In this document: positions 2,643-62,618 of the stretch, piece by piece
Numbering within the stretch: position 1 is the first letter of the stretch
Layout: every line of letters begins with the position of its first letter
Assembly (NCBI GenBank): GCA_963727835.1
Contig: CAVSIB010000030.1
Span: forward strand, 5,127-69,126
Length of the DNA stretch: 64,000 bases
DNA from: an uncultured delta proteobacterium
GTDB taxonomy: Bacteria; Desulfobacterota; WTBG01; JAGOGO01
Direction of reading: 5' to 3'
Program-made: the position numbers and the translations under genes
Notes under the pieces: generated by a model
Seen by the model: the letters and a program-made list of their open reading frames with translations, nothing else
The model's database searches: none
What the model was told of the DNA's origin: nothing

Positions 2643-2931
2643 AAGGCATTAAATAAGAGCCTATTTTCAAAGAACAAAAGAATTTATTGGTTCAGTTTCC
2701 TACGCCATCCCAAACTAGGGCGAGGAGACCTATTACCGCATTGTTTATTTTAGAACAGAGAAACTCAGGAATTCCGACAAATGCTTTGCAAAGGCCACGA
2801 TTATTCGCCAGATCGTTGCATATTCTTTCGCGCGGTGAGCGCGAAGCAGTCACTTCCAATCATATTACAAGATAACTCAAATCTTCCTTTGAGGCTAAAA
2901 TTTCCCCGGCCGTTCATCAACAGAAGTGTGT

Positions 2932-3291
2932 TTAAGGCAGTTCGGTCTTGGTCACTGCTTCAGCCTTAACGCGGTCAAGGAGTTCGGAAAGCACGGGCTT
3001 GACATTTTCCCGAATATCTCCAGCCACCACAATAAAAAGCAGGTCATCTCCTGGGTGCAACCTTCCCGCACGGCACTCAATAAGAATTTTATAAATCCCG
3101 GGCTTTTGTGAATACTCCTTGCGTAAAGTCTCAACTCTATGCGCATCCACCGCGACATCAATGTAAGTAACGGTCTTATGGTCTTGGCGTGACCAGCCGC
3201 GGACCACCCCATTATGAACCAAAACCATACCAACATTTTTTGAAAACCCCGGCTCTTTTTTCATCTCCGCAATGACCTTGCTAATATCCAT
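2932..3291 (-). CDS. MoaE-like (molybdopterin synthase catalytic subunit fold) protein
   Basis: The 119-aa ORF is collinear, from memory, with the MoaE core: G.V..F.G.VR ... G.L.PGD...F..V ... D..K......K.E. The canonical SAHR is replaced by GDIR. Confidence 0.5.
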   Translation of the reverse strand: MDISKVIAEMKKEPGFSKNVGMVLVHNGVVRGWSRQDHKTVTYIDVAVDAHRVETLRKEYSQKPGIYKILIECRAGRLHPGDDLLFIVVAGDIRENVKPVLSELLDRVKAEAVTKTELP

Positions 3292-3566
3292 GGATGCCTT
3301 CGGTGCTGAGAATTCAACTTATCTAGGAGCGGAGGCTATCCCCGCCCACGGGCGAACATAAACTTGCTTCTTCATTTCTATTGATTTTTTCCATCATCCA
3401 AAATGGTTCTACCGTAACTTCTTGGGGCTGTCAAAAGCTTCTGATTGTGCCGATAACTTTTCCTTGCCATATTTTGCCATTTTGCTAAACTAAAAAATAT
3501 TTGCTCTGATAAATTACTCATTTCAACCATGAGACCCTTTTCATTTTCTTCAACCGTAAGAACAAA

Positions 3567-5135
3567 ATGAATCAATTGACATTTAATGAAAAAGATCTTA
3601 GGCAAATGAAGGCTCTGGCAATCACAGAGAAAAAGGTTCGAGCCCAAATCGCGATTTTTAAACGGGGAAGCTTTTTCCAAAAACTCATTCGCCCCTGCAC
3701 TCTCGGTGACGGGATAATCAGCATTTCGGAAAAAGAAATCCCGCAATTGCTCAGAAAACACCAGGAGGAGGGTGCCTACCAAGGAAGACTTCTCAAGTTT
3801 GTGCCTGCTTCAGGAGCGGCAAGCCGTATGTTTGATGTGCTGATGAAGTACTTAAAAAGTGATTCGCGCGTGCACCGAAAGGAAATTATCCAGAGGGCTG
3901 GTGCTGGCGATCAAGAAGCTAAAGAGGTGCTTTCTTTCGTTGATGGCATCAAACGGTTTGCTTTTTATGATGACCTAAAAAGCGTGCTGGCCCGAATGGG
4001 ATTAATGGTAGATGATTTATTAGCCCAATGTGAGTACACACACCTCATCGAGGCTTTAGTAACTGATCGCGGTCTTAACTATGCTAATCTTCCGAAAGGG
4101 CTACTCAAGTTTCACGCTTATCCTGAGGGTTGCCGGACGGCTTTAGAGGAACACTTGGTAGAGGCAATAGCGTATGTTCAAGACCAAACAGGGATTTGCC
4201 GGCTCCATTTTACGGTTTCTCCAGAACATCAAGAGCGATTCATGCACCATTTCGAAGCAGTGAGAGCGCACTATGAAACAAAATACCGCGTCCGCTTTCA
4301 CGTAGATTTTTCAATCCAAAAACTTTCAACCGACACGATCGCTGTGGATATGAACAATGAACCTTTTCGGGGAAAAGATGGAAAACTCGTTTTCCGGCCT
4401 GGAGGACATGGCGCGCTGATTGAAAATTTAAATGATATCCAGGGAGATATAATTTACATAAAAAATATCGACAACATTGTTCCCGATCCCCTCAAAGGAG
4501 AAACCTTTCTCTGGAAAAAAATTTTAGGGGGACTCCTCATACAAATTCAGGAAAAAATTTTTACGTATTTAAAGAAGCTTGAGCGTCAGAAAGAAAACAA
4601 AGTAGTTGAAGAAGCCTTCGAGTTTGCCGAAAAACAGCTTTTTATCCCCCCCCCAAAGAAAAAGCTGGGGTCAAAAAACGAAATACGGGAGTTTCTTTTA
4701 AAAAAATTTAATCGTCCTATCCGAATCGGCGGCATGGTAAAAAATCAAGGTGAACCAGGAGGGGGACCGTTCTGGGTGCAAGGGGAAAATGGTTCTTTAT
4801 CTCTCCAAACGGTGGAACACGCCCAGGTTGATATGAAATCAGCTGAACAGCAAAAAATATGGGGTATGGCAACGCATTTCAGCCCCGTAGATTTTGTCTG
4901 CGGAGTCCGGGATTATAAAGGAAATCCCTTTGACCTTAAGCGTTACGTAGACCAGGATGCAGTTTTTATTTCTCGAAAATCAAAAGATGGCCGAGCCTTA
5001 AAAGCCTTGGAACTTCCCGGCCTCTGGAACGGGGGCATGGCTGACTGGATTACTATTTTTGTTGAAGTTCCGCTGATTACTTTTAATCCGGTTAAAACCA
5101 TCAATGATCTGCTTCGCAAGGAGCATCAACCCTAA
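3567..5135 (+). CDS. DUF4301-like protein with UDP-sugar-pyrophosphorylase-like motifs
   Basis: The 522-aa ORF carries PASGAASRMF and FRPGGHGAL motifs typical of UDPGP-type nucleotidyltransferases. It lies next to sugar-nucleotide genes. Confidence 0.45.
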   Translation: MNQLTFNEKDLRQMKALAITEKKVRAQIAIFKRGSFFQKLIRPCTLGDGIISISEKEIPQLLRKHQEEGAYQGRLLKFVPASGAASRMFDVLMKYLKSDSRVHRKEIIQRAGAGDQEAKEVLSFVDGIKRFAFYDDLKSVLARMGLMVDDLLAQCEYTHLIEALVTDRGLNYANLPKGLLKFHAYPEGCRTALEEHLVEAIAYVQDQTGICRLHFTVSPEHQERFMHHFEAVRAHYETKYRVRFHVDFSIQKLSTDTIAVDMNNEPFRGKDGKLVFRPGGHGALIENLNDIQGDIIYIKNIDNIVPDPLKGETFLWKKILGGLLIQIQEKIFTYLKKLERQKENKVVEEAFEFAEKQLFIPPPKKKLGSKNEIREFLLKKFNRPIRIGGMVKNQGEPGGGPFWVQGENGSLSLQTVEHAQVDMKSAEQQKIWGMATHFSPVDFVCGVRDYKGNPFDLKRYVDQDAVFISRKSKDGRALKALELPGLWNGGMADWITIFVEVPLITFNPVKTINDLLRKEHQP

Positions 5136-49529: not shown

Positions 49530-50411
49530 ATGCCGGAAATAGATCAAGAAGGAAAAGATTATGGTCTCGATATTCCCGTAAAGACTGGGGGGTTTTTTTT
49601 AAAAGGTTCACATGCCCTCGATTGGGGGATGAAAAACCGCCTCTCCCGTATATTTAACCCTGATACCGGTCGCACCGTGATGCTGGCAATTGACCACGGA
49701 TACTTTCAAGGACCGACAACGGGGCTTGAACGGATTGATTTAAACATCGTGCCCCTCGCTCCCTATGCCGACACCCTTATGCTCACCCGGGGTATCTTGC
49801 GCACCACGATACCACCAACCTATCGAGGAGGAATCGTTCTTCGCGCGACTGGCGGGCCGAGTATTTTGAAGGAACTTTCCAATGAACAAATCGCGGTGGA
49901 TATGGAAGATGCAATCCGGCTCAATGTATCGGCATTAGCGGTACAGGTATTTATCGGAGGAGAGTTTGAAACTCAATCCGTACATAACATGACCCGTTTG
50001 GTGGATATGGGAAATCGCTATGGGATTCCTATTCTCGCGGTTACGGCCGTAGGCAAGGATATGGCCCGGGATGCTCGATACTTCCGCCTCGCGTGTCGGA
50101 TCTGTGCTGAACTGGGCGCCCATTATATTAAGACCTACTATATCCCCGATGGTTTTGACACGGTTGCCGCTTCGTGCCCGGTTCCGTTAGTAATGGCGGG
50201 AGGAAAGAAACTCCCTGAACTGGATGCTCTTCAGATGTCCTATAATGCTGTCCAGGAAGGTGCTGCCGGGGTGGATATGGGCCGAAATATCTTCCAATCA
50301 GAGGCACCGGTGGCAATGATCAAAGCAGTTCGAGGAGTTGTTCACGAAGGGCTTAAACCCAAAGAAGCGTACCAGCTTTTTCTCGATATAAAAAATAAAA
50401 AGGTAAAATAA
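49530..50411 (+). CDS. LsrF-like DhnA/DeoC-family class I aldolase/thiolase
   Basis: Long collinear similarity, recalled from memory, to E. coli LsrF: [38 protein letters not shown]...IKTYY...[11 protein letters not shown]. Confidence 0.75.
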
Positions 50412-50479: not shown

Positions 50480-52450
50480 TTAATTGTCCAGCACCTCTCG
50501 TATTTTAAACAAAATCTCTTCCGGCGAGACGGGTTTACCAATAAAATTTAACCCCTCAAGAATTGCTTGTTCATCAATAATCTCAGCGGAATAACCGCTG
50601 ATAAAAACTGCTTTTATCTCCGGCTTGATTTTTTTTATGGCATCGTAAGCCTCTTTTCCATTCTTTTTAGGCATGATGACATCCAGAAGCAAGAGATGGA
50701 TATCATCCTTGTGTTTTAGAAATTGTTCGATCGCATTTTCTCCATCGCGTGCTTCGAGGACTTTGTACCCAAATTCTTCCAGGATTCCTTTCACTAGGCT
50801 CGCAACTGCCGGATCATCGTCTGCGACAAGTATTGTCTCAGTACCCCTTTTAAGCGGGGGCGAAGCTTTTTCTTCTTGCCTTTCAAATGTCGAATCAATC
50901 AAGGGAAGATAAATATTAAAGGTTGTTCCTTTACCAACCTCACTTTTAACGTCAATATACCCGTCATGTTGTTTCACAATGCCATAGACCATGGAAAGAC
51001 CAAGACCAGTTCCTTTCCCTACCTCCTTCGTGGTAAAAAAGGGGTCGAAAATTTTTTCCTTAGTCTTCTCATCTATCCCAATACCTGTATCGGTAACCGA
51101 GATAAGGGCATAACCACCTGAGTGTCTGGGTTGTGAGGTGACTACACTATGTGGGAGCAACTGTTCCGCCCCGGTCGTAATAGTTAACACACCACCTTTG
51201 GGCATGGCATCCTTGGCATTGGTAACGAGATTCATGAAGATCTGATCTAACTGCCCTTGGTCAGCCATGATAATCAAATCTTTATTGCACAGTTCGATCT
51301 TAAACTCTATGTCTTCTTTAATGAGTCTCCCGAGGAGCTTTTTTAAGTTGCTGATACTTTCATTAAGATTTAATGACCTCGGAGCACTCAACTGTTTTCT
51401 GCTAAACGCAAGAAGGTTCTTGGTCAGACTTGCTGCCCTTTGGGCTGAGTCAAGTATTTGTGCAACATGAGAACTGATCGGGCTTCCTTGTGGAATTTTC
51501 ATTTGAATAAGCCCCCCAAAACCCATTATCGCCGTGAGGATATTATTAAAGTCATGGGCTATGCCGCCGGCCAGAGTTCCGATTGCTTCCATTTTTTGGG
51601 CATGCCAGAGCTGTTCTTGGAGTTGTTCTTTTTCTGCTTCCCTTTTTTTTAACGCATCAAGCATAGTGTTAAATGCGTCAGCGAGCTTGCCGATTTCATC
51701 CCCGGTCTCAACCCCCACATCACTGACCACGCCTCCAATACCGAGAGTGTACACCCCTGCAGTCAATCGTTTAAGGGGAATTGTTATCTGCCTGGTCATA
51801 ATAAATATAAGTAAAGAACCGATGCTCCAAAAAACAAAACCTATTAAAATACTTTTTAATAACAGGATATTGAGCTGTTTTTTAAGTTCGACTTTATCAA
51901 TGGTTAATTTTGCAAAACCAGTGATAAGTTCCTTTTTTTTCGAAGGGCGCTCTCCCAGAACCAGATATTCTTCAGAAGCATATCCTGCGACTGTGATGAC
52001 CGGCGACCATAATTCCATAGAGTCCTTGCCCTTAAGCAAACACAGAGGCTGATCCTGCCGGAAACTTGCAATTACGTTACCCGGGACTTTTTCATTTTCG
52101 TCTGCTGATGTTTGCTGATCCGTGACTTTATATTTCTTTAGCTTTTTAAACAAATTTTTTTGCAGATTAAATACAGAAACCTCTAAGACGCTTTCCTGTT
52201 GAAAAATTCCTTCAACCGCATCTCTGAGCAGGTCTTTATTTTCTGAAAGAACGCCGAGCCTCACGCTGTAAGCAAGGACCCCGACAAGTAATTCTGAGTT
52301 TTTCATCAGAGTATTGGTGAGCGCTTTTCTTTGCTGATAGTAAAAAAAGATCGTAAAAACAGAGGAAATGATGAAGAAAAAAATTGTAAAGGTAACGAAT
52401 ACCTTAATGCTGAATTTTTCACGCAAGAGCTTAAGAAAATTTAAATTCAT
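50480..52450 (-). CDS. Hybrid sensor histidine kinase/response regulator (TM-sensor-TM-HAMP-HisKA-HATPase-REC)
   Basis: H-box [11 protein letters not shown], the G-box DTGIGI/GTGLGL, and a C-terminal receiver ILVADDD...LLLDVIMP; 656 aa. Confidence 0.9.
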
Positions 52451-52459
52451 CTTGTGCCT

Positions 52460-53380
52460 TTACTTCAGAATCTTAGCTTTTTCTAAGACCTTCTCATCAA
52501 TAGTGATTCCCAACTTTTTTGCTATCTTGAGGTTAATTAATATTACTGCCTTCCTGGCATCAATGCGCTGAACATCCCTCTTACCCCCATTGGAAAGGAT
52601 TGCTTTAGCCATTTCACCGGCCTGATTGCCTATATCAAAGGGGTCTACGCTGATTGACATTAATGCACCGAGCTCAACATATTTTACTGAAAAGGAGATG
52701 ATCGGTTTCTGATTTTCGAGCAAGAAGAGAAGCAGAAAATCGATGGTCTCAGGAGAATACACGGTGATATCCGGGATCATCCAGAAGGCATCTATCTTGT
52801 TTCGAAGATTCTTTAAGGCGGAAGGGACCTCTTTTGTGCTCTGAACTTTTTCTTTTATCAAAGAGATACCCATGGTATTAGCCGCATGCACCGCCTCTTT
52901 TATAAAATTGCCGGTCCTATCCGGGTTATATAAGGTACCGATCGTTTTTGTTGCTGGTAAAACCTCTAGGAGGGTAGCGACCTGCCTTTCGGGAGATAGA
53001 GTCATACTGATACCGCTGATATTCTTTTCACCGAAAGTAATTGCCTGAGGATTGAGAACCATCATATAAATAATCGGAATGTCCTCGATCTCTTTTATTT
53101 CTGTGAGCGCATCCATCCCGATGGCGAGAATAAGTTCCGGTTTGTTGAATTGAATTAACTGGGAAGGGTTGATTTTCTCCTGGTCGGAAAGAACTACTTT
53201 CGTAATCTCAGCATCACAGACACTTTTAAAACCGGCAAGCGCTTCCTCATATGGTGCAACGCTAAGGCTCTGGACAACGAGTACCCTCTGCCCAGCTTCT
53301 GCCAAACCGTTGCAACATACTAATATTAAAAAGGAAGTAAAGATTTTTGTAATCACGAATTTCTGTTGCGATACCGTCAT
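52460..53380 (-). CDS. ABC-transporter-type periplasmic substrate-binding protein (ABC_sub_bind family), co-oriented with the kinase
   Basis: A 306-aa ORF with a signal peptide and family-typical ...LNLKIAKKLGITI... at the C-terminus. It lies 10 nt upstream of the kinase gene. Confidence 0.7.
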   Translation of the reverse strand: MTVSQQKFVITKIFTSFLILVCCNGLAEAGQRVLVVQSLSVAPYEEALAGFKSVCDAEITKVVLSDQEKINPSQLIQFNKPELILAIGMDALTEIKEIEDIPIIYMMVLNPQAITFGEKNISGISMTLSPERQVATLLEVLPATKTIGTLYNPDRTGNFIKEAVHAANTMGISLIKEKVQSTKEVPSALKNLRNKIDAFWMIPDITVYSPETIDFLLLFLLENQKPIISFSVKYVELGALMSISVDPFDIGNQAGEMAKAILSNGGKRDVQRIDARKAVILINLKIAKKLGITIDEKVLEKAKILK

Positions 53381-53591
53381 TGAGTCAAAAATCTTTTAAG
53401 TGTCTCTTTGTTTACCCCCCCTTTCGGGAAAAGGGGGCAAAGGGGGGTTCCAGCCTGTCCGGCGATGGCTGCTCATGCTGTTTTATAAAGTTTAGCGTGG
53501 TATTATACATATTTTATGAGTTTTTCAACAGCCTGATAATTCGCAACGCCCTTTTTTACAATAATTTTTTGTAAAAAAACAAAAAAATTGC

Positions 53592-53770: not shown

Positions 53771-55726
53771 ATGAATTTTAGGAACCGAGACATTCTAATT
53801 GTTTGTTTTTTTGTGTTCTTTTCTACCCTCCCCCTCTTTCTTTTCTGTCCACCCTCCTTTGCCCAGTCAGAGGAGGAAATGCAAACTCTCCAGATGTTTT
53901 ATAAGGAAAAAGACCTGGTAGTATCCGCTACCAGAAACCTCGAACCAATCTCTCAGGTTGCCGAAAATATCACGGTTATTACTGCCAAAGACATCGAGCA
54001 TATGAATGCCCATACTGTGGCTGATGTCCTGAACCGTGTCCCGGGTCTCTTCATTAATTATAATCAGGACTTCGGCGCCCCCTCGTTGCTTCAAATCCAG
54101 GGCTCGGAGCCGAGGCATGTCCTCGTTGTGGTTGACGGCATCAAGTGGAATTCTCTGGCAAGCGGGGCGGCTGAAACAAACGCTATTCCGGTAGATATCA
54201 TCGAACGCATAGAGATAATCAAAGGCCCTGCCTCATCATCCTGGGGTTCAGCTTTAGGAGGGGTGGTAAACATCATCACCAAGGACGCAGGAAACACCAG
54301 CCGGCCTTCAGGCTCTCTAAGCGCTTCGTATGGGGAAAGAGAAACCCAGGATTATAGGGCTCAGGTTGCGGGGTTAGCCGGGACAGTAGGGTATTATCTT
54401 TATGCAGGGCACCAGGAATCTGACGGTTTCAGAGAATCGCGGGATTTTGAGACTTACAGCCTTTACTCCAAGGTTCATCTCCCGGTCACAAGCAAGGTAA
54501 CTACTGACTTTACTCTCGGGTACAGTGAACCGGACCAGAAGGTTGGGGATTTTCCGGGCGAGGATATTACCCAACGAGCAGCAAATCCGACTTTTTTTGC
54601 AACTGCGTCCCTTGATGCCTCCCTTTCCAAAGAGTTAAGCTTTGCAGCATCCTTTCACGAATTCAAGCAAAGATTTTCCGAGTGGTTCAATTCCCTCGGG
54701 CTTTACGGGCTTCCTTTTGATCCTCCCGGAGCATTGTATGAGCATGAGGTTTATGATGAGGAAACCACGGGAGGGGATGCAAAGTTTACCTGGGCTCATG
54801 GGATCCACACCGCAGTTCTTGGAGGAGAATTTGATCGCGGCACGCTCGACCAGACGATCAAGGCCGGGACTTTACTTCAATTATATGGCTTTCCAGCAAT
54901 TGCGACTACCAGCCCGGGCATTGACCGGTGGGCAGTATATGCCAATGACACCATTGTCATTGACCGGTGGTCCATCACCCCGGGGGTCAGGTATGACCGA
55001 AACAACATTACCGGCTCATTTGTCAGTCCAAGCCTTGGCATAACCTACCAGGTTTGGCGAGATTCTGTTTTACGCGCTTCAGTGACGCGTGGTTTTACCA
55101 TCCCTCCTTTATCCTGGACGTCCGGGGGGGGGTTAACTCTTCTTCCCAACCCAAGTCTAAACCCGGAAAAAATCATGTCCTACCAGTGTGGCGGGGAAAC
55201 CGCGGTGCTCAAGTACTTCTGGTTAAAGGCGACCTTGTTCCGGCATGAGGTGGAAGATACCTTAAGCCCTAACTATGAACCACCACCATCCCCATATTAC
55301 ATCATTGTCAATGGCAAAAAGACCAGGAGACAGGGCGGAGAAATTGAACTGCAAACCGTCCCGGTTTATAATTTTTATTTTGTCGGCGGATATTCTTACG
55401 TCCATTATTCCCCTCCCAGCGAATCTACCGCCACCAAAGACTCCTATTCCTATTCTCTCGGTTTCAGATACGATGACAATAGATCTTTCCGGGGGGAACT
55501 TTTTGGCCATTATGTGTGGTGGGACCTTGATCCCAGTTTTATGGCAAAATACCATGCTTTTATCTGGGACCTGAACCTTACCAAGAAAATCTTCCTCCAG
55601 GAGAAGACCTCATCTGAGCTTTTCTTTACTGCCCACAACCTTTTTAACGGCGCTCAGTATTTTTCTGTGGAAAGCGAAAACCCCCGACGGTGGGTAGAGG
55701 CCGGAATAAGAATTAAATTTAAATAA
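53771..55726 (+). CDS. TonB-dependent outer-membrane receptor
   Basis: Signal peptide, plug domain ITVITAKDIEHMNAHTVADVLNRVPGL...VVDGI, a long beta-barrel, and a C-terminal aromatic-rich strand; 651 aa. Confidence 0.9.
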   Translation: MNFRNRDILIVCFFVFFSTLPLFLFCPPSFAQSEEEMQTLQMFYKEKDLVVSATRNLEPISQVAENITVITAKDIEHMNAHTVADVLNRVPGLFINYNQDFGAPSLLQIQGSEPRHVLVVVDGIKWNSLASGAAETNAIPVDIIERIEIIKGPASSSWGSALGGVVNIITKDAGNTSRPSGSLSASYGERETQDYRAQVAGLAGTVGYYLYAGHQESDGFRESRDFETYSLYSKVHLPVTSKVTTDFTLGYSEPDQKVGDFPGEDITQRAANPTFFATASLDASLSKELSFAASFHEFKQRFSEWFNSLGLYGLPFDPPGALYEHEVYDEETTGGDAKFTWAHGIHTAVLGGEFDRGTLDQTIKAGTLLQLYGFPAIATTSPGIDRWAVYANDTIVIDRWSITPGVRYDRNNITGSFVSPSLGITYQVWRDSVLRASVTRGFTIPPLSWTSGGGLTLLPNPSLNPEKIMSYQCGGETAVLKYFWLKATLFRHEVEDTLSPNYEPPPSPYYIIVNGKKTRRQGGEIELQTVPVYNFYFVGGYSYVHYSPPSESTATKDSYSYSLGFRYDDNRSFRGELFGHYVWWDLDPSFMAKYHAFIWDLNLTKKIFLQEKTSSELFFTAHNLFNGAQYFSVESENPRRWVEAGIRIKFK

Positions 55727-56060
55727 ACAAAAACGCCTCAATTAATTAGGCAATGGTTAACCAAGATGATGGTTAATTGTTTTCTGCGAAATCGTTTTCA
55801 CCCGAAATGGCCGGGACAAAGCCGAAACCCCCAGATTCTTTCCTACAACTTAACCAGGCTTAGCCTTGTTATCCACTCAACTGTTGATCATCCCCTATTG
55901 AGTGATTCTTCGGTGTCATTTCTTAGACAAGGCTGACGCAATTTCATCTTTCAGCAGATTGCCACGAATCCTTTGGGTTCTCGCAATGACAAAAGAAATA
56001 AGGTTAATCGTGTAAAAGTATGGATGAAAATTTAGCATAAGCAAGGTGAACTCCCCCATT

Positions 56061-56085
56061 GCCCCCTCTTTTCTAAAGAGGGGGC
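56061..56085. repeat. Perfect 11-bp-stem hairpin (GCCCCCTCTTT-tct-AAAGAGGGGGC), member of a local poly-C/poly-G hairpin family
   Basis: Read directly from the sequence. Related C-run/G-run hairpins occur at 53417-53437, 57641-57672 and 57781-57810. Confidence 0.7.
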
Positions 56086-56123
56086 GAAAACATTAGCATG
56101 CTTAGTAGCCGATCGGAATGTTT

Positions 56124-56152
56124 CTGACAGGTAAATTTTTTAATTCGATAAA
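56124..56152 (+). promoter_or_regulatory. Candidate promoter for the precursor array
   Basis: CTGACA (56124-56129), a 17-nt spacer, then GATAAA (56147-56152). The -35-like element exists only in front of copy 1. Confidence 0.3.
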
Positions 56153-56201
56153 AGTTAATCCTTTATATATTTGTAACCTTTTATTACCAAGGAGGTACGT
56201 T

Positions 56202-56306
56202 ATGAAAGAAGAAAGAATCATTATCATTGACGAAGGTATTGATGAAGTTAACCCGGATGGGTGGCAGGCGTGCTGCTGGGGACCTTTGTTTGCCTTCAGA
56301 GGCTAA
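56202..56306 (+). CDS. RiPP precursor peptide candidate, copy 1 (34 aa: MKEERIIIIDEGIDEVNPDGWQACCWGPLFAFRG)
   Basis: ATG lies 6 nt after AAGGAGG. It has an acidic leader-like N-terminus and a Cys/Trp/Phe-rich C-terminus, and sits upstream of a radical SAM/SPASM gene. Confidence 0.8.
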   Translation: MKEERIIIIDEGIDEVNPDGWQACCWGPLFAFRG

Positions 56307-56367
56307 TGAACCGATAAAAGTTAATCCTTTATATATTTGTAACCTTTTATTACCAAGGAGGTACGTT

Positions 56368-56472
56368 ATGAAAGAAGAAAGAATCATTATCATTGACGAA
56401 GGTATTGATGAAGTTAACCCGGATGGGTGGCAGGCGTGCTGCTGGGGACCTTTGTTTGCCTTCAGAGGCTAA
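56368..56472 (+). CDS. RiPP precursor peptide candidate, copy 2 (identical)
   Basis: Identical unit shifted by 166 bp, with its own AAGGAGG. Confidence 0.8.
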   Translation: MKEERIIIIDEGIDEVNPDGWQACCWGPLFAFRG

Positions 56473-56533
56473 TGAACCGATAAAAGTTAATCCTTTATAT
56501 ATTTGTAACCTTTTATTACCAAGGAGGTACGTT

Positions 56534-56638
56534 ATGAAAGAAGAAAGAATCATTATCATTGACGAAGGTATTGATGAAGTTAACCCGGATGGGTGGCAGG
56601 CGTGCTGCTGGGGACCTTTGTTTGCCTTCAGAGGCTAA
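56534..56638 (+). CDS. RiPP precursor peptide candidate, copy 3 (identical)
   Basis: Identical unit shifted by 332 bp, with its own AAGGAGG. Confidence 0.8.
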   Translation: MKEERIIIIDEGIDEVNPDGWQACCWGPLFAFRG

Positions 56639-56699
56639 TGAACCGATAAAAGTTAATCCTTTATATATTTGTAACCTTTTATTACCAAGGAGGTACGTT

Positions 56700-56804
56700 A
56701 TGAAAGAAGAAAGAATCATTATCATTGACGAAGGTATTGATGAAGTTAACCCGGATGGGTGGCAGGCGTGCTGCTGGGGACCTTTGTTTGCCTTCAGAGG
56801 CTAA
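56700..56804 (+). CDS. RiPP precursor peptide candidate, copy 4 (identical)
   Basis: Identical unit with its own AAGGAGG. Confidence 0.8.
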   Translation: MKEERIIIIDEGIDEVNPDGWQACCWGPLFAFRG

Positions 56805-56865
56805 TGAACCGATAAAAGTTAATCCTTTATATATTTGTAACCTTTTATTACCAAGGAGGTACGTT

Positions 56866-56970
56866 ATGAAAGAAGAAAGAATCATTATCATTGACGAAGG
56901 TATTGATGAAGTTAACCCGGATGGGTGGCAGGCGTGCTGCTGGGGACCTTTGTTTGCCTTCAGAGGCTAA
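56866..56970 (+). CDS. RiPP precursor peptide candidate, copy 5 (identical)
   Basis: Identical unit with its own AAGGAGG. Confidence 0.8.
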   Translation: MKEERIIIIDEGIDEVNPDGWQACCWGPLFAFRG

Positions 56971-57031
56971 TGAACCGATAAAAGTTAATCCTTTATATAT
57001 TTGTAACCTTTTATTACCAAGGAGGTACGTT

Positions 57032-57136
57032 ATGAAAGAAGAAAGAATCATTATCATTGACGAAGGTATTGATGAAGTTAACCCGGATGGGTGGCAGGCG
57101 TGCTGCTGGGGACCTTTGTTTGCCTTCAGAGGCTAA
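57032..57136 (+). CDS. RiPP precursor peptide candidate, copy 6 (identical)
   Basis: Identical unit with its own AAGGAGG. Confidence 0.8.
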   Translation: MKEERIIIIDEGIDEVNPDGWQACCWGPLFAFRG

Positions 57137-57197
57137 TGAACCGATAAAAGTTAATCCTTTATATATTTGTAACCTTTTATTACCAAGGAGGTACGTT

Positions 57198-57302
57198 ATG
57201 AAAGAAGAAAGAATCATTATCATTGACGAAGGTATTGATGAAGTTAACCCGGATGGGTGGCAGGCGTGCTGCTGGGGACCTTTGTTTGCCTTCAGAGGCT
57301 AA
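57198..57302 (+). CDS. RiPP precursor peptide candidate, copy 7 (identical)
   Basis: Identical unit with its own AAGGAGG. Confidence 0.8.
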   Translation: MKEERIIIIDEGIDEVNPDGWQACCWGPLFAFRG

Positions 57303-57363
57303 TGAACCGATAAAAGTTAATCCTTTATATATTTGTAACCTTTTATTACCAAGGAGGTACGTT

Positions 57364-57468
57364 ATGAAAGAAGAAAGAATCATTATCATTGACGAAGGTA
57401 TTGATGAAGTTAACCCGGATGGGTGGCAGGCGTGCTGCTGGGGACCTTTGTTTGCCTTCAGAGGCTAA
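57364..57468 (+). CDS. RiPP precursor peptide candidate, copy 8 (identical)
   Basis: Identical unit with its own AAGGAGG. Confidence 0.8.
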   Translation: MKEERIIIIDEGIDEVNPDGWQACCWGPLFAFRG

Positions 57469-57529
57469 TGAACCGATAAAAGTTAATCCTTTATATATTT
57501 GTAACCTTTTATTACCAAGGAGGTACGTT

Positions 57530-57634
57530 ATGAAAGAAGAAAGAATCATTATCATTGACGAAGGTATTGATGAAGTTAACCCGGATGGGTGGCAGGCGTG
57601 CTGCTGGGGACCTTTGTTTGCCTTCAGAGGCTAA
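57530..57634 (+). CDS. RiPP precursor peptide candidate, copy 9 (identical)
   Basis: Identical unit with its own AAGGAGG. ATG at 57530 was checked on the sequence. Confidence 0.8.
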   Translation: MKEERIIIIDEGIDEVNPDGWQACCWGPLFAFRG

Positions 57635-57640
57635 TGAACC

Positions 57641-57682
57641 GAAAGGGGGGTTATACTTAGTTCCCCCTCTTTTTCTTTTTTA
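57641..57682 (+). terminator. Candidate intrinsic terminator/attenuator between the precursor array and the maturase gene
   Basis: A G-run (57645-57650) pairs with a C-run (57663-57667), flanked by A/T pairs, then TTTTTCTTTTTT. The loop is rather large (about 12 nt). Confidence 0.45.
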
Positions 57683-57729
57683 AAAATCATGGTTCATCGT
57701 GTAAAAACGCAGGTGAAAGGCAAGGAGTA

Positions 57730-57759
57730 TTGATTTACCAAATGCAGACATCATATAAA
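57730..57759 (+). promoter_or_regulatory. Candidate internal promoter for the radical SAM gene
   Basis: TTGATT (57730-57735), an 18-nt spacer, then TATAAA (57754-57759), about 135 nt upstream of ATG 57894. Confidence 0.3.
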
Positions 57760-57893
57760 GTAGAAAACAAGCTGGAACTACCCTGCCCCCCCTTTTTTTG
57801 AAAAGAGGGAGTTGGGGTAGTTAACCAAGCAATGGCATCGTGAGTTAAGAAAAAATTTGATTGCGACGAAAAGTTTTATTTACAGGAGGTGAA

Positions 57894-59186
57894 ATGCAGC
57901 TTTCTCACTATCTCAAAATATACCCCTACGAGGAAAAACCGGGGCATCTTTTGCTTTTTTCTACCAAAAAAAGTTCCGTCATTGTCATTAAGGAAGAGAC
58001 CTTTCAGGCAATAGAACAAGCTACTCTTTCCCCTTCGGATGAGGCTTTGTTATTCAAACACGGGGTGATTGTGCCGGACCGGGAAGAAGAAAAGCGGAAT
58101 ATGTTCGGGCTGTTGGATACGAAAAATACGAGGAATCCGGCCTTGAACAGTATGGTAGTTCTCAATCTGGACTGCAACTTTGCCTGTCTTTACTGTTATG
58201 AAGGTGACATGAAGGGAAATCGCTATATGTCAGATGAGACTGCTGCCCTCCTGATAGATTTAATTAAAAAGAACTTCACGGGAGAAAAGAAAAAACTGCT
58301 TATAGACTTTTATGGCGGGGAGCCCCTCCTGAGCTTAGGATTAATTAAATCAATTTCCCGTGAGTTGAGTGCCTTTACTCAGGGAAAAGGAGGTTCCTTT
58401 AATTTCACGCTGGTCAGTAATGGTGCGCTCTTTAAAAAGCAGGTAGCAGAAGAGCTTGTTCCTTTAGGGCTGGAAAGGATTAAGATTACCCTCGATGGAC
58501 CGGCTGAGGTTCATAACCAATACCGGCCTTTTAAGTCTGGAGCCGGAAGCTTTAATACCTTAATAAGAAATATCAAGGAGACCTGTGACCTGGTAAAAAT
58601 CAGCATCGGAGGAAATTTTGAAAGCCACAACTATGAACAATTTGTATCCCTCCTCGATTTTCTGATTAAGGAAGGGCTCACACCGGAGAAGATTAGTGGT
58701 ATTAAGTTCGACCCGGTTTCAAAGCGGCCAGAGGGCGATATTTCACCTGCTGACTATAAAGGCGGCTGCATGTCCATGGACGAGCCTTGGCTTATTAAGG
58801 CCTCGGAAATTTTGCGGGAAGAGATACTCAAAAGAGGCTATAACACTCCCAAAATTGCGCCAATTTTTTGTATGGTTGACAACAAAAGCTCTTTTGTGGT
58901 CAACTTCGATGGGGTCATTTATAAGTGCCCGGCCTTTATCGGCAAGGAAGGGTTCGCGGTAGGCAATGTTCAAAACGGAATTGACGATTACACGAATTCT
59001 TATAAGCTTGGCCTTTGGAAAACCAATGACGAATGTGCTGAATGTGTTTACCTGCCCCTCTGCTTTGGAGGCTGCCGATATACGAAATTTATCCAGAAAG
59101 GTAATATAGATACCTTAGACTGCCGCAAAGATTATCTTGATGCTACCCTCGAGACTTTCATTAAACAGGAGGTAAAGTTTAGGTAG
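57894..59186 (+). CDS. Radical SAM/SPASM-domain peptide maturase with an N-terminal RRE-like (PqqD-like) region
   Basis: ATG at 57894 lies after GGAGG (the ORF track starts at TTG 57861). About 90 aa precede CNFACLYC (CX3CX2C). GGEPLL is present. The C-terminus carries C-X13-G-X4-C (CMVDNKSSFVVNFDGVIYKC), then CAECVYLPLCFGGC (CX2CX5CX3C), then a later Cys (LDCRKD), which together form the full SPASM signature. Confidence 0.9.
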   Translation: MQLSHYLKIYPYEEKPGHLLLFSTKKSSVIVIKEETFQAIEQATLSPSDEALLFKHGVIVPDREEEKRNMFGLLDTKNTRNPALNSMVVLNLDCNFACLYCYEGDMKGNRYMSDETAALLIDLIKKNFTGEKKKLLIDFYGGEPLLSLGLIKSISRELSAFTQGKGGSFNFTLVSNGALFKKQVAEELVPLGLERIKITLDGPAEVHNQYRPFKSGAGSFNTLIRNIKETCDLVKISIGGNFESHNYEQFVSLLDFLIKEGLTPEKISGIKFDPVSKRPEGDISPADYKGGCMSMDEPWLIKASEILREEILKRGYNTPKIAPIFCMVDNKSSFVVNFDGVIYKCPAFIGKEGFAVGNVQNGIDDYTNSYKLGLWKTNDECAECVYLPLCFGGCRYTKFIQKGNIDTLDCRKDYLDATLETFIKQEVKFR

Positions 59187-59228
59187 GGAGCAGAAGACAG
59201 GAGGCAGATGGAAAGAGGGTGACTCTAA

Positions 59229-59450
59229 AAATGTCATTCCTGCAAAAGCAGAAATCTAGAACCAATCGAAATTACTGGACTCTCCCGAGTCAAGTTTGGG
59301 AGAGTAACAGATTGGGAATTATTAGACGTTCTCTTGATTCTTGCACGAGATCTCGGTTATAGTGAGACAAATGATTTAATGCTCCAGGTGGAGGAAGTGA
59401 GTAAACTTCTTGATGCCTATGCGAAAGCTATTCTGAATTCTGACTCCTGA
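59229..59450 (+). pseudogene. Start-less fragment resembling the C-terminus of a four-helix-bundle (23S rRNA intervening-sequence-type) protein
   Basis: The frame is open from 59229 with no start codon: ...DWELLDVLLILARDLGYSETNDLMLQVEEVSKLLDAYAKAILNSDS*. It is preceded by a degenerate gtcattcctgcaaaagcagaaatc-type hairpin element. Confidence 0.4.
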
Positions 59451-59473
59451 CGTCTGACGTCTAAATTAGTAGT

Positions 59474-60754
59474 ATGAAATTTATTGCTGATTTCCACATT
59501 CATTCCCATCTTTCCCGGGCTACCAGCCGTGAGATGAACCTTGAGAATATCTATAAGTGGGCTCAACTCAAAGGGGTAACTGTGGTGGGGACTGGAGATT
59601 TTACCAATCCCCAATGGTTTAAAGAACTCCGCGAAAAACTTGAGCCTTCTGAACCCGGCCTCTTTGTTTTAAAGCCACAGTATCGACATGCTATTGATGA
59701 GGAGATTCCTGAGTCCTGCCGAGCATTGGTGAGATTTATTCTGTCGGTAGAAATTAGCAGCATTTACAAAAAATACGAAAAGACACGTAAAGTTCATAAC
59801 CTCATCTTCTTCCCTGACCTTCGTTCTGTTTCCCGTTTAAATGCCATGCTCACAAAGGTAGGCAACCTCTCATCGGATGGAAGACCCATCCTGGGGCTGG
59901 ACAGTAAAGAGTTATTGAGAATGGCTCTTGATGCCTCTCACGAGACATATTTTGTGCCCGCCCACATCTGGACTCCTCACTTCTCGGTCTTGGGCGCAAA
60001 CAGCGGCTTTGACTCTCTTGAAGAATGCTTTGAAGAGTTAACGCCGTTGATCCACGCCGTAGAAACCGGACTGTCGTCTGATCCCCCTATGAATTGGAGG
60101 CTTTCCGGCCTGGATAACGTAACACTCATCTCTAACTCCGATGCCCATTCTCCTAATCGCATCGGCCGAGAGGCGAATATTTTTTCCGCCGAGCTTTCTT
60201 ATTTTTCTATTCTCGATGCGCTCAACAATCCAGTAAAAGGCGAGTTTTTAGGAACTATCGAATTTTTTCCCGAAGAAGGAAAGTACCACTTTGATGGTCA
60301 CCGCACTTGTGGAGAGCGGCTCTCGCCCGCGGAAACCATCAGACATGGGGGGATTTGTCCAAAGTGCGGGAAAAAAGTTACTGTGGGAGTTATGCACCGG
60401 GTTACCGAATTGGCGGATCGTCCCTTAGGCTTTGTGCCTGATGGAAAACCTACTTTTAAAAGCCTCGTCGGACTCACGGGGGTGATCAGTGAAATTTATG
60501 AAGTGGGGGGAAAAAGTAAAAAAGCCCAGAATGAATATTTACGGCTCCTGAGGCTTCTGGGAAATGAGTTATTTATTCTTATGGACTGCCCTCTGCCTAC
60601 CCTTAAAAACGCCGGTCTTTCCCTCCTTCCCGAGGCGATCAATAACGTGCGGAAAGGTGAGGTAAGCATTCTGCCTGGCTACGACGGAGAATACGGGAAG
60701 GTGAGAGTCTTTAAGGAGAAAGAGAAAAACTCAAAACAGCTGAAACTCTTTTGA
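59474..60754 (+). CDS. EndoQ-like PHP-domain nuclease (TIGR00375-type) with a C-terminal zinc ribbon
   Basis: MKFIADFHIHSHLSRATS (PHP HxH), ...NSDAHSP..., and HRTCGERL...ICPKCGKKVTVGVMHRV; 426 aa. Confidence 0.7.
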   Translation: MKFIADFHIHSHLSRATSREMNLENIYKWAQLKGVTVVGTGDFTNPQWFKELREKLEPSEPGLFVLKPQYRHAIDEEIPESCRALVRFILSVEISSIYKKYEKTRKVHNLIFFPDLRSVSRLNAMLTKVGNLSSDGRPILGLDSKELLRMALDASHETYFVPAHIWTPHFSVLGANSGFDSLEECFEELTPLIHAVETGLSSDPPMNWRLSGLDNVTLISNSDAHSPNRIGREANIFSAELSYFSILDALNNPVKGEFLGTIEFFPEEGKYHFDGHRTCGERLSPAETIRHGGICPKCGKKVTVGVMHRVTELADRPLGFVPDGKPTFKSLVGLTGVISEIYEVGGKSKKAQNEYLRLLRLLGNELFILMDCPLPTLKNAGLSLLPEAINNVRKGEVSILPGYDGEYGKVRVFKEKEKNSKQLKLF

Positions 60755-60755
60755 A

Positions 60756-62618
60756 ATGCCCCTCGATTTAAGCCTTCTGAATTCTTCTCAGCGTGAGGCG
60801 GTCACAGCTCCAGATGGTCCTTCACTGATCATCGCCGGTCCTGGAACCGGTAAAACTCTGACACTTGCCTATCGTATCGCCTATCTCATCTCCGCATTGG
60901 GAATCAACCCGGAAAAAATTTTGGCAGTAACCTTTACCACCAAAGCCGCCCAGGAGATGAAGGAGAAACTCACTAAAATCTTGCCTTCTGATTCACCCCT
61001 TACCCAGTACCTTGCTCACCTTACGGTCAGCACTCTACATGCGCTCGGCCTGTCTTTCTTACGACAGCACGGTGAGAAGGTCGGCCTGTTGCCAGATTTT
61101 CAAATACTTTCCGAATCAGAACAGGTGCAGCTGGTAAAAGAAATTCTCTCTCAGCTTATGCCTCAAGAATCACTTAACCGGGCTTTAAAATGGGTGCGAA
61201 GAATTTCCGAACACAAAAATCTTTTTGGCGATACGCCCATGGGTTGTGATCTTCAGTTGAGTCATGCTCAGGAGATATTCTCTGCATACGAGAAAAAGCT
61301 GTTGGAACGTAATCGGATAGACTTTGATGATTTAATCCTCAAACCACTCATGCTGTTGCAGGAGTTCCCTGAGGTGCGAGAAGACTACCAAAACCGGTTT
61401 AAGTATATTCTCGTAGATGAATACCAAGATCTCAATAACCCCCAGTACTTGTTTCTTAAAAAACTCTGCGGTCCGAAAACCAGTGCTTGGATTATTGGTG
61501 ATGCGGATCAGGCTATTTATGCTTTCCGGGGAGCTAATGTAGAATATTTTTTGACGTTCCAGCAGGACAATCCCCAAGCCCGACGTATTTATTTAGAAAG
61601 AAACTATCGTTCCTCTGAACCTATCCTTGCCGGTGCTTTAGCAGTGATAAAAAACAACACCAATCGTCTCCCGAACAATCTCTTCCCCTCAAATCCAGAC
61701 GGTTCGCCTATCTATCTCTTTCACGCCTCTGACCCCCGAGCTGAAGCTCGCTTTATAGTTAAAGAGATCGAAAAACTGGTCGGAGGAACCCGGATGGAAT
61801 CTCATTATGAAGAATCAGAGATGTTCGGATTCAGCGATATTGCTATCCTCTATCGCCTTCACCATCTCTCCCTTCCTTTTTCGGAAGCGCTTCAGGAATC
61901 AGGTTTCCCCTATCAGATTGTGGGAGGTCATTCCAATAATGTTGACTCTATCTCCGGGTATTTAATCCCCTTTCTGAAAGTGGTACTTAACCCTCATGAT
62001 GACCTTTCTTTTCGGGCTATCGCGCCTCACATAGATAAACACTCTGATTCTCGCGCCATGTTCCTTTCACTCATTGCCCGGTATCAGAGGGAAATTAGCA
62101 CCGTAAGCCTTGAGGCGCTGATTAAAAATATTGTTCAGGAAATGAAGATAAAAGAAAAAGATAGGTTCGAATGGCTCACCCTTGTTGAACCATTCCAGGA
62201 TGGTAGTGCTGACAAGCAGCTTCCCCATTTCTTGGAGTACATTTCGCTCTTAAAAGAGGGAGAGACTTATAACCCCAAAGCGGAAGCAGTCACACTCATG
62301 ACTGTTCATGCAGCCAAGGGTTTGGAATTCCCGGTGGTATTCATAGTGGCTCTGGAATCAGGGGTTTTCCCCTGTACCGAATTTGGAGAAGAGCCATCTG
62401 ATAAAGAAGAGGAAAGACGGCTTTTTTACGTGGGCATGACCAGAGCTCAACAAAGGCTCTACCTTTCCTTTGCCAAAGAAAGGTTTCTTTTTGGCGAAAA
62501 CCGCAAGGAACCGCCTTCACCCTTTATCTCGGAAATTCCTCAGAAAACGATCGAGAACATATCTGATCCCAGAAAGCCATCAAGACCAAAAGTCAAACAG
62601 CGCACCCTGTTTTCTTGA
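60756..62618 (+). CDS. UvrD/Rep/PcrA-family superfamily-1 helicase (short, 620 aa)
   Basis: AGPGTGKT (motif I), ILVDEYQDLN (II), TVHAAKGLEFPVVF (V) and FYVGMTRAQQRL (VI). It starts 2 nt after the preceding stop. Confidence 0.88.
   Translation: MPLDLSLLNSSQREAVTAPDGPSLIIAGPGTGKTLTLAYRIAYLISALGINPEKILAVTFTTKAAQEMKEKLTKILPSDSPLTQYLAHLTVSTLHALGLSFLRQHGEKVGLLPDFQILSESEQVQLVKEILSQLMPQESLNRALKWVRRISEHKNLFGDTPMGCDLQLSHAQEIFSAYEKKLLERNRIDFDDLILKPLMLLQEFPEVREDYQNRFKYILVDEYQDLNNPQYLFLKKLCGPKTSAWIIGDADQAIYAFRGANVEYFLTFQQDNPQARRIYLERNYRSSEPILAGALAVIKNNTNRLPNNLFPSNPDGSPIYLFHASDPRAEARFIVKEIEKLVGGTRMESHYEESEMFGFSDIAILYRLHHLSLPFSEALQESGFPYQIVGGHSNNVDSISGYLIPFLKVVLNPHDDLSFRAIAPHIDKHSDSRAMFLSLIARYQREISTVSLEALIKNIVQEMKIKEKDRFEWLTLVEPFQDGSADKQLPHFLEYISLLKEGETYNPKAEAVTLMTVHAAKGLEFPVVFIVALESGVFPCTEFGEEPSDKEEERRLFYVGMTRAQQRLYLSFAKERFLFGENRKEPPSPFISEIPQKTIENISDPRKPSRPKVKQRTLFS

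Follow-up and report, generated by a model that had tools for sequence, protein, structure and literature searches.

A 64,000-nt stretch of DNA from an uncultured delta proteobacterium (GenBank assembly GCA_963727835.1, contig CAVSIB010000030.1, positions 5,127 to 69,126 of the forward strand), denoted the window in the following, encodes a radical S-adenosylmethionine (SAM) protein with a SPASM domain at 57894-59186 on the + strand. This protein is very probably the maturase of a geopeptide-family system of ribosomally made peptides with post-translational modifications (RiPPs), acting by the mechanism proposed below on the nine identical 34-residue peptides encoded upstream of it. Judged by analogy, thioether formation from the Cys-Cys (CC) motif of these peptides, as in CteB, PapB and QhpD, is the most likely chemistry, to which we would give about an even chance.

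Sequence and family assignment of the maturase

The open reading frame (ORF) 57894-59186 comprises 430 codons and a stop. Its start codon is read as ATG 57894, since an AGGAGG element is found 4 nt upstream and Met1 and Ser4 are invariant among the maturase homologues; a longer reading of the frame from TTG 57861 (+) is not supported. The elements of the gene are:

57884-57889, + strand: Shine-Dalgarno sequence AGGAGG of the maturase gene, read from the sequence and kept in loci L002 and L003
57894-59186, + strand: predicted geopeptide-family radical SAM/SPASM peptide maturase, 430 residues (TIGR04280 score, motifs, AlphaFold2 model, CteB as top fold match)
57894-58148, + strand: N-terminal domain resembling a RiPP recognition element (RRE), residues 1-85 (predicted local distance difference test, pLDDT, > 90; Foldseek matches)
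58173-58196, + strand: CX3CX2C motif (C94, C98, C101) for the SAM-binding 4Fe-4S cluster, invariant in 78/78 orthologues
58869-59123, + strand: SPASM domain (TIGR04085) with C326, C345, C381, C384, C390, C394 and C410, all invariant in 78/78 orthologues

The first cluster cysteine is preceded by 93 residues and belongs to the motif CNFACLYC (C94-x3-C98-x2-C101), while GGEP is located at residues 141-144. The SPASM domain is composed of C326-x13-G340-x4-C345 and of C381-x2-C384-x5-C390-x3-C394 (CAECVYLPLCFGGC), with C410 as the distal cysteine. The CX3CX2C and GGEP motifs and the seven-Cys SPASM pattern, which the initial annotation had read from the translation, all proved to be in place, and the ten cluster cysteines (3 + 7) are invariant in the alignment of 78 orthologues. 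The other cysteines are variable, with C231 present in 53/78 and C292 in 59/78 orthologues. No eighth SPASM cysteine ligand is conserved across the 78 orthologues, C292 being the sole candidate.

Curated hidden Markov models (HMMs) bear out the radical SAM/SPASM identity put forward in the initial annotation, both Pfam Radical_SAM PF04055 (51.8 bits, cut-off 29.5) and the SPASM model TIGR04085 (57 bits for residues 326-406, cut-off 27) being passed. The NCBIfam model TIGR04280, 'geopeptide radical SAM maturase', matches the protein end to end (residues 1-429 on model positions 1-427 of 428) with 578.7 bits (cut-off 400, E = 7e-174). This model is of the type 'hypothetical equivalog', its family having been defined through comparative genomics. 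The runner-up NCBIfam models are CefB (192 bits), TIGR04463 (175), Clo7bot (151), PapB (141) and the SCIFF maturase (110), all of which describe maturases of Cys-containing peptides. The protein stays below the cut-offs of the SCIFF maturase family of CteB (TIGR03974, 109.8 bits, cut-off 425), of the PapB family (NF047865, 140.8 bits, cut-off 340) and of the QhpD model (90 bits, cut-off 453). A grouping with anaerobic sulfatase-maturing enzymes (anSMEs) next to sulfatase genes, which the initial annotation had named as an argument against a peptide substrate, was not encountered: the score with TIGR03942 is 73.4 bits (cut-off 349), and no sulfatase gene is found among the conserved neighbours of the maturase loci.

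A protein database search returned an identical sequence together with clusters of 61-96% identity, which number well above one hundred. Several public homologues at 62-86% identity, from metagenome-assembled genomes (MAGs) of Thermodesulfobacteriota and Desulfobacterales, carry the NCBI name 'geopeptide radical SAM maturase'. A genome scan yielded 80 loci from Thermodesulfobacteriota and Nitrospirota with enzymes of 48-88% identity, the closest being those of an uncultured deltaproteobacterium (88%) and of ORM2a, a MAG with a complete genome (86%). Among PDB sequences the best match is CteB (5WGG, E = 3.7e-21), followed by anSME (E = 1.8e-09). On sequence grounds, the maturase is a new member of the catalogued TIGR04280 family that resembles CteB and PapB and lies outside their families.

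Longer maturases of about 723 residues occur in some loci (L036, 2635-4806; L040, 6001-8181). Their C-terminal extension, soluble and about 290 residues long, matches no Pfam family, and no transmembrane helix is predicted in it; no match to this extension is found within the window.

Precursor peptides and their association with the maturase

Upstream of the maturase gene and on the same strand, the window harbors a tandem array of peptide genes:

56146-57642, + strand: tandem array of nine identical 166-bp units, each with AAGGAGG, ATG and a 34-codon ORF (Tandem Repeats Finder, TRF)
56202-56306, + strand: precursor peptide gene copy 1 (34 residues, MKEERIIIIDEGIDEVNPDGWQACCWGPLFAFRG), with homologous peptides in 75 loci
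56368-56472, + strand: precursor peptide gene copy 2
56534-56638, + strand: precursor peptide gene copy 3
56700-56804, + strand: precursor peptide gene copy 4
56866-56970, + strand: precursor peptide gene copy 5
57032-57136, + strand: precursor peptide gene copy 6
57198-57302, + strand: precursor peptide gene copy 7
57364-57468, + strand: precursor peptide gene copy 8
57530-57634, + strand: precursor peptide gene copy 9

The peptide start codons are located at 56202 + 166n, and TRF reports a period of 166, 9.0 copies and 100% matches, with 0 mismatches between units; the nine upstream copies counted in the initial annotation are thus confirmed. Its statement that the enzyme follows immediately downstream of the array holds in that the strand is the same and no gene intervenes, but the last peptide stop (57634) and the maturase ATG are separated by a gene-free gap of 259 nt (57635-57893) containing a terminator-like hairpin and a U run.

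An iterated HMM search, started from the window peptide and run over all short ORFs in the 80 loci, retrieved a homologous CC peptide in 75 of them, almost always on the strand of the enzyme and with a median distance of 64 nt (usually 40-90 nt) from peptide stop to enzyme start. Of the five loci without an HMM match, four are contigs starting at or inside the enzyme gene, and the fifth (L079) encodes a divergent CC peptide ending in ...DDKCCEKSIRPIR. All 76 informative loci (75 plus L079), which belong to two phyla, thus have a CC peptide just upstream of the enzyme. Such co-occurrence and conservation of a CC peptide are what an enzyme-substrate pair predicts, and they support the pairing that had been proposed from the window sequence; an adjacent peptide gene consistently accompanies the orthologues.

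Within the peptide family an acidic/basic N-terminus is followed by a hydrophobic leader, (EE-)I-I/V-V-L-D-x-G-I/L-D, and by a variable linker of 7-11 residues that leads to the CC pair. The pair is invariant in 78/78 peptides and opens the core CC-x-G-x-x-x-P/A-x-R/K, in which Gly at +3 is found in 44, Pro or Ala at +7 in 68 and Arg or Lys at +9 in 56 of the 78 peptides. The C-terminus is reached 8-10 residues past CC.

Close relatives carry between 1 and 10 peptide genes. An independent metagenomic contig (L082), whose enzyme is 96% identical to that of the window, carries 9.9 units of 157 bp with 97% identity (2610-4168), and its peptide (MKEERIIIIDEGADEVNPDGFQACCWGPLFAFRG) differs in two residues from that of the window. 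About five (4.8) units of 157 bp are found in L002 (4867-5621) and two units in each of L083 (5158-5411) and L085 (5128-5391), while L084 and L003 (= ORM2a) possess a single copy; frameshifted peptide copies are present in L002 and L082. The units are uniform within one array yet different between strains, which points to recent amplification or homogenisation. Read from these sequences, the nine-copy array is real and variable between strains, with L082 as an independent case, and the arrays of 9-10 copies are a clear case of precursor-gene dosage differing between close strains. The Logan short-read contig ERR11594402_2954441 (L001), which encodes an identical enzyme, begins 281 nt upstream of the gene and inside the last repeat unit. 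This shows that the arrays break short-read assemblies, and precursor copy numbers in other MAGs may be under-counted for that reason.

Overall fold and N-terminal domain

An AlphaFold2 model of the maturase was built on 24 sequences and has a mean pLDDT of 80.9, with low-pLDDT stretches near the cluster-binding loops, as expected without metals. The top fold matches in the PDB are three chains of CteB (5WHY/5WGG) with E = 1e-18 to 2e-17 and template modelling (TM) scores of 0.62-0.65. As these alignments span 445-465 columns and all three domains, the N-terminal domain is included in the match. CteB is the best solved relative of the maturase by both sequence and fold; in the fold search it is followed by anSME (E = 8e-15, TM 0.56-0.68), TigE, SuiB and ChlB.

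Residues 1-80 are modelled with pLDDT > 90 and are predicted to form strands 7-11, 18-23 and 28-33 followed by helices 34-41, 47-55 and 63-80. This β3-α3 order conforms to the RRE topology of a three-stranded sheet followed by three helices. Modelled alone, the domain reaches a pLDDT of 86.4, and its top five Foldseek matches in the PDB consist of the lasso-peptide RRE TbiB1, the lasso B1 protein 6JX3 and the N-termini of TigE and CteB. The TbiB1 of this match was crystallised together with its leader peptide. 'RRE-like' is the best reading of this predicted fold, and an unproven one.

Proposed mechanism

The N-terminal RRE-like domain would bind the conserved leader of the peptide, probably as an added β-strand; a strand-like hydrophobic motif (I-I/V-V-L-D-x-G) is conserved in the leaders. 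The CX3CX2C cluster would cleave SAM reductively to give a 5'-deoxyadenosyl radical, and the SPASM domain would hold two auxiliary 4Fe-4S clusters. Because no eighth cysteine is conserved, auxiliary cluster I could have an open iron site to which a thiolate of the substrate binds, in the way of CteB. Abstraction of a hydrogen atom from a nearby residue by the 5'-deoxyadenosyl radical would follow, and the CC pair would be cross-linked through thioether bridges, one or two in number, that connect Cys sulfur with a carbon of such a residue, two bridges being possible since the core has two cysteines. Since the peptides do not conserve the side chain of an acceptor, the bridge might go to a backbone α-carbon or to the Gly +3/Pro +7 region just as plausibly as follow the β or γ links of ranthipeptides. 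The mature peptide would leave the cell and later be imported and/or sensed in the periplasm.

Conserved gene neighbourhood

Clustering of all proteins of 81 loci revealed a five-gene cassette, to which the initial annotation had not referred. It consists of a hybrid histidine kinase, a periplasmic binding protein, a TonB-dependent receptor, the peptide(s) and the maturase. In the window the three partner genes are:

50480-52450, - strand: hybrid sensor histidine kinase/response regulator with two transmembrane helices, a periplasmic domain and HAMP, HisKA, HATPase and REC domains
52460-53380, - strand: periplasmic substrate-binding protein of family PF04392 (118 bits) with a signal peptide
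53771-55726, + strand: TonB-dependent receptor, 651 residues, TonB box DLVVSAT, with Pfam Plug and β-barrel domains

The receptor gene is located directly upstream and on the same strand in 63/64 loci with enough flanking sequence. Where at least 5.9 kb of upstream sequence is available (49 loci), the PF04392 protein is present in 46 and the kinase in 45 loci. No permease or ATPase gene is adjacent to the PF04392 gene. Matches of the kinase include TorS (125 bits) and LuxQ (118 bits), both far below the respective cut-offs. Directly after the maturase gene, about 24 of the 80 loci encode a 187-residue half-size transporter of the major facilitator superfamily (MFS, PF07690; e.g. L004, 7306-7911; L060, 7302-7865; L064, 7294-7857), which may serve as an exporter. 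A 'second radical SAM gene' seen beside the enzyme in about 24 loci arose from fusion proteins that misled the clustering; the gene in question is that of the half-size MFS transporter. Because the cassette contains a receptor, an orphan binding protein, a kinase and occasionally an exporter, it suggests that the geopeptide product acts outside the cytoplasm and is then taken up or sensed again.

The plug region of the receptor gives sub-threshold matches (60-82 bits) to NCBIfam models of TonB-dependent receptors named for U-containing motifs (PCPU, PUIUD, CU, FCYXU). Beside the kinase gene, 49530-50411 (+) encodes an LsrF-type 3-hydroxy-5-phosphonooxypentane-2,4-dione thiolase of autoinducer-2 processing (NF006081, 499 bits, cut-off 297); its adjacency is probably coincidental because it is common to only one other locus. 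Genes of family PF05635 (23S rRNA intervening-sequence protein family) are found near the cassette in L083 (1413-1781) and L085 (8236-8604). Downstream of the maturase, a TIGR00375-family protein (59474-60754, +; 157 bits, under the cut-off of 327 bits, with a weak match to MJ0043_C) and a UvrD helicase (60756-62618, +) were considered and placed outside the system, as this pairing is common only to the closest relatives (L002, L003 and L082-L085).

Expression signals around the array

Two features flank the peptide genes:

56116-56144, + strand: conserved 29-nt block before the first unit, candidate promoter or operator, unique in the window
57641-57682, + strand: terminator-like hairpin and U run between the array and the maturase gene (terminator scan; -14 kcal/mol)

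The 29-nt block (GAATGTTTCTGACAGGTAAATTTTTTAAT) occurs once per array and is kept before the first peptide gene in L002, L003, L082 and L083. A promoter scan found no sigma-70 promoter before the array, and the block itself permits only a weak -35/-10 reading, hence the word candidate in its designation. The array is flanked by three G/C-rich hairpins, at 56059-56087 (-22.7 kcal/mol), 57641-57673 (-14 kcal/mol) and 57776-57822 (-21.8 kcal/mol); a U run follows the middle hairpin only. No Rfam family was detected in 55000-60000 at E <= 1, nor in the whole window at gathering scores. With the block present once upstream and a hairpin after the array, the array probably yields one nine-cistron message that starts at a single promoter upstream of it, and partial read-through of a leaky terminator or attenuator (57641-57682) would provide far more substrate than enzyme. 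Another G/C-rich stretch with a self-complementary appearance is found at about 53409-53450, past the binding-protein gene.

Assessment of the assignment and alternative explanations

Several observations weigh against the assignment given above. A literature search found no experimental paper on the geopeptide family (TIGR04280/TIGR04229), and the chemistry for that reason rests on analogy. With the curated peptide model TIGR04229, 'geopeptide', its only family match, the window peptide scores 13.4 bits (E = 0.053, cut-off 30), and the ten peptides taken from other loci reach 10-16 bits or give no score. This model is narrow, and as the peptides miss its cut-off, the link to the name 'geopeptide' rests on the enzyme. 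The peptides have no conserved acceptor residue other than Gly +3, Pro/Ala +7 and Arg/Lys +9, and the Asp, Glu, Thr and Asn acceptors of known ranthipeptides are absent from them. Neither an exporter, the half-size MFS transporter of other loci included, nor a leader peptidase is encoded in the window, which leaves release and export unexplained there, and the homogeneity of the array could partly come from assembly polishing. As to the RRE-like N-terminal domain claimed in the initial annotation, topology and top fold matches agree with it; the matches themselves are weak, however, the best having E = 0.019 (TM 0.38, within a range of about 0.38-0.52) and thus being below significance. At the sequence level no RRE signal was obtained, as Pfam PqqD has no match in the N-terminal domains of 23 family members and a profile of the domain gave only chance matches to PDB sequences.

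The maturase might act on the same peptides by a different chemistry, turning one cysteine of the CC pair by oxidation into formylglycine or a different carbonyl in the manner of anSME, with a reactive or metal-binding group and no thioether ring as the result. anSME (4K36-4K39) has the radical SAM and SPASM fold in common with the maturase and is its second-best PDB match by sequence as well as by fold, and the Pro/Ala-x-Arg/Lys element near the peptide C-terminus loosely resembles the sulfatase motif C-x-P-x-R. The spacing deviates, however, with Pro six or seven residues past Cys instead of two. Furthermore, anSME has no N-terminal RRE and both of its auxiliary clusters are fully ligated by cysteines, in contrast to the missing eighth cysteine of the geopeptide maturases, and every model scoring above TIGR03942 describes a peptide cross-linker; with these differences and the low TIGR03942 score, formylglycine-type chemistry appears unlikely. 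Carbon-carbon or carbon-oxygen links between aromatic or other side chains, of the StrB/SuiB, DarE or three-residue cyclophane type, would leave the CC pair for metal binding or a disulfide. The aromatic-rich core of the window peptide (W, W, F, F) and the presence of SuiB and TigE among the fold matches are in line with such links, but the family does not conserve aromatic residues, which are missing altogether from CCKGASAPVR and CCSGSQAAVR, for example, while CC is invariant, and low scores are obtained with the models for cyclophanes and dynobactin (YhhB 62 bits, DynA 78 bits). We consider these links decidedly unlikely.

Two further explanations concern the role of the peptide genes. The peptide might be the scaffold of an intracellular redox cofactor of the pyrroloquinoline quinone (PQQ) or mycofactocin type that is not secreted, the receptor and sensor genes being unrelated or regulatory. 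PqqE and MftC are likewise RRE-dependent radical SAM/SPASM enzymes acting on short peptides, and the window lacks an exporter and a peptidase. Cofactor pathways, however, need additional tailoring enzymes, none of which is conserved at the geopeptide loci; amplification of the precursor to 9-10 copies fits a consumed or released product, and both the receptor directly upstream and the half-size MFS transporter of some loci likewise weigh against a cofactor, which is highly unlikely. Finally, the repeat might be non-coding or an artefact of assembly, with the enzyme acting on a different substrate. Nine units at 100% identity are unusual, and L001, the short-read contig that encodes an identical enzyme, has its break within the last of them. 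Yet AAGGAGG, ATG and an intact ORF are present in every unit, the peptide is kept at the protein level over 76 loci in two phyla, and L082 independently provides units of another length with a two-residue variant of the peptide, so that hardly any weight is left for this explanation.

Comparison with known systems

The assignment as a geopeptide maturase is in agreement with the TIGR04280/TIGR04229 pair in the full-length enzyme score above the cut-off and in the short peptide gene upstream. Differences are the host, which belongs to an ORM2-like Thermodesulfobacteriota lineage and not to Geobacter, the presence of the precursor in nine identical copies and the score of the peptide under the TIGR04229 cut-off.

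With CteB of the SCIFF (thermocellin) system (5WGG, 5WHY) the window maturase shares an architecture in which an RRE at the N-terminus precedes the radical SAM barrel and the SPASM domain, as far as the predicted fold can be compared. As in the window pair, the SPASM domain of CteB has seven cysteines and no conserved eighth ligand, and its substrate is Cys-dependent. The identity between the two enzymes is only about 20%, and the TIGR03974 score of the maturase is far under its cut-off. SCIFF peptides contain six cysteines in about 45 residues, whereas the window peptide has a single CC pair, and unlike the geopeptide loci those of SCIFF have no receptor/binding-protein/kinase context. PapB (freyrasin), other ranthipeptide maturases and QhpD form thioethers from Cys sulfur. 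Their models belong to the same best-scoring group, with scores below the cut-offs as listed above. PapB substrates carry repeated C-x3-D/E motifs, in contrast to the geopeptide core with no conserved acidic acceptor.

By analogy of gene layout, the closest operon logic to the geopeptide cassette is that of methanobactin. A methanobactin operon comprises the precursor MbnA, MbnBC, the TonB-dependent transporter MbnT, the binding protein MbnE, the exporter MbnM and regulators. In both systems the genes of a RiPP precursor and its maturase are accompanied by those of a TonB-dependent receptor, a periplasmic binding protein and a regulator, and in some loci by that of an exporter. Exported methanobactin, once it has been loaded with copper, is re-imported via MbnT and bound by MbnE (PMC7558416). 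It differs in its maturase (MbnBC instead of a radical SAM enzyme), in its binding protein (OppA-like instead of PF04392) and in its regulation (sigma/anti-sigma factors instead of a hybrid kinase), and the likeness concerns the gene layout, not metal binding. For the sensing half of the cassette, TorT/TorS and LuxP/LuxQ offer a precedent by analogy, as an orphan periplasmic binding protein is encoded there beside a hybrid kinase with a periplasmic domain; the kinase of the window scores far under the cut-offs of TorS and LuxQ, however, and its binding protein belongs to another family.

Implications

Members of the geopeptide family are found widely among lineages of sulfate reducers and Nitrospirota, relatives of the benzene-degrading ORM2a included, and have been named automatically by NCBI. 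Two features are noteworthy and deserve follow-up, namely the 9-10 identical copies to which the precursor has been amplified and the receptor, binding protein and kinase that accompany the pair almost universally. The system is directly testable, given a defined substrate with an invariant CC pair, a likely open iron site at auxiliary cluster I, a conserved leader and conserved partners.

Tentatively, and with somewhat less confidence than the thioether chemistry, the cassette may be read as a self-contained extracellular peptide circuit of anaerobic Gram-negatives (Thermodesulfobacteriota, Nitrospirota). A cross-linked peptide of about 10-12 residues would be released, re-imported free or metal-loaded by the TonB-dependent receptor, caught by the PF04392 protein and reported to the hybrid kinase, either as a quorum signal or as a thiol/thioether metallophore with sensing, and the amplification of the precursor (1 to 10 copies) would tune the output. 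A role of ranthipeptides in the quorum sensing of clostridia is said to have been described by Chen and co-workers in 2020. If the geopeptide product is indeed a re-imported signal or metallophore, the cassette would be a RiPP circuit of Gram-negative anaerobes that is methanobactin-like but based on a radical SAM enzyme.

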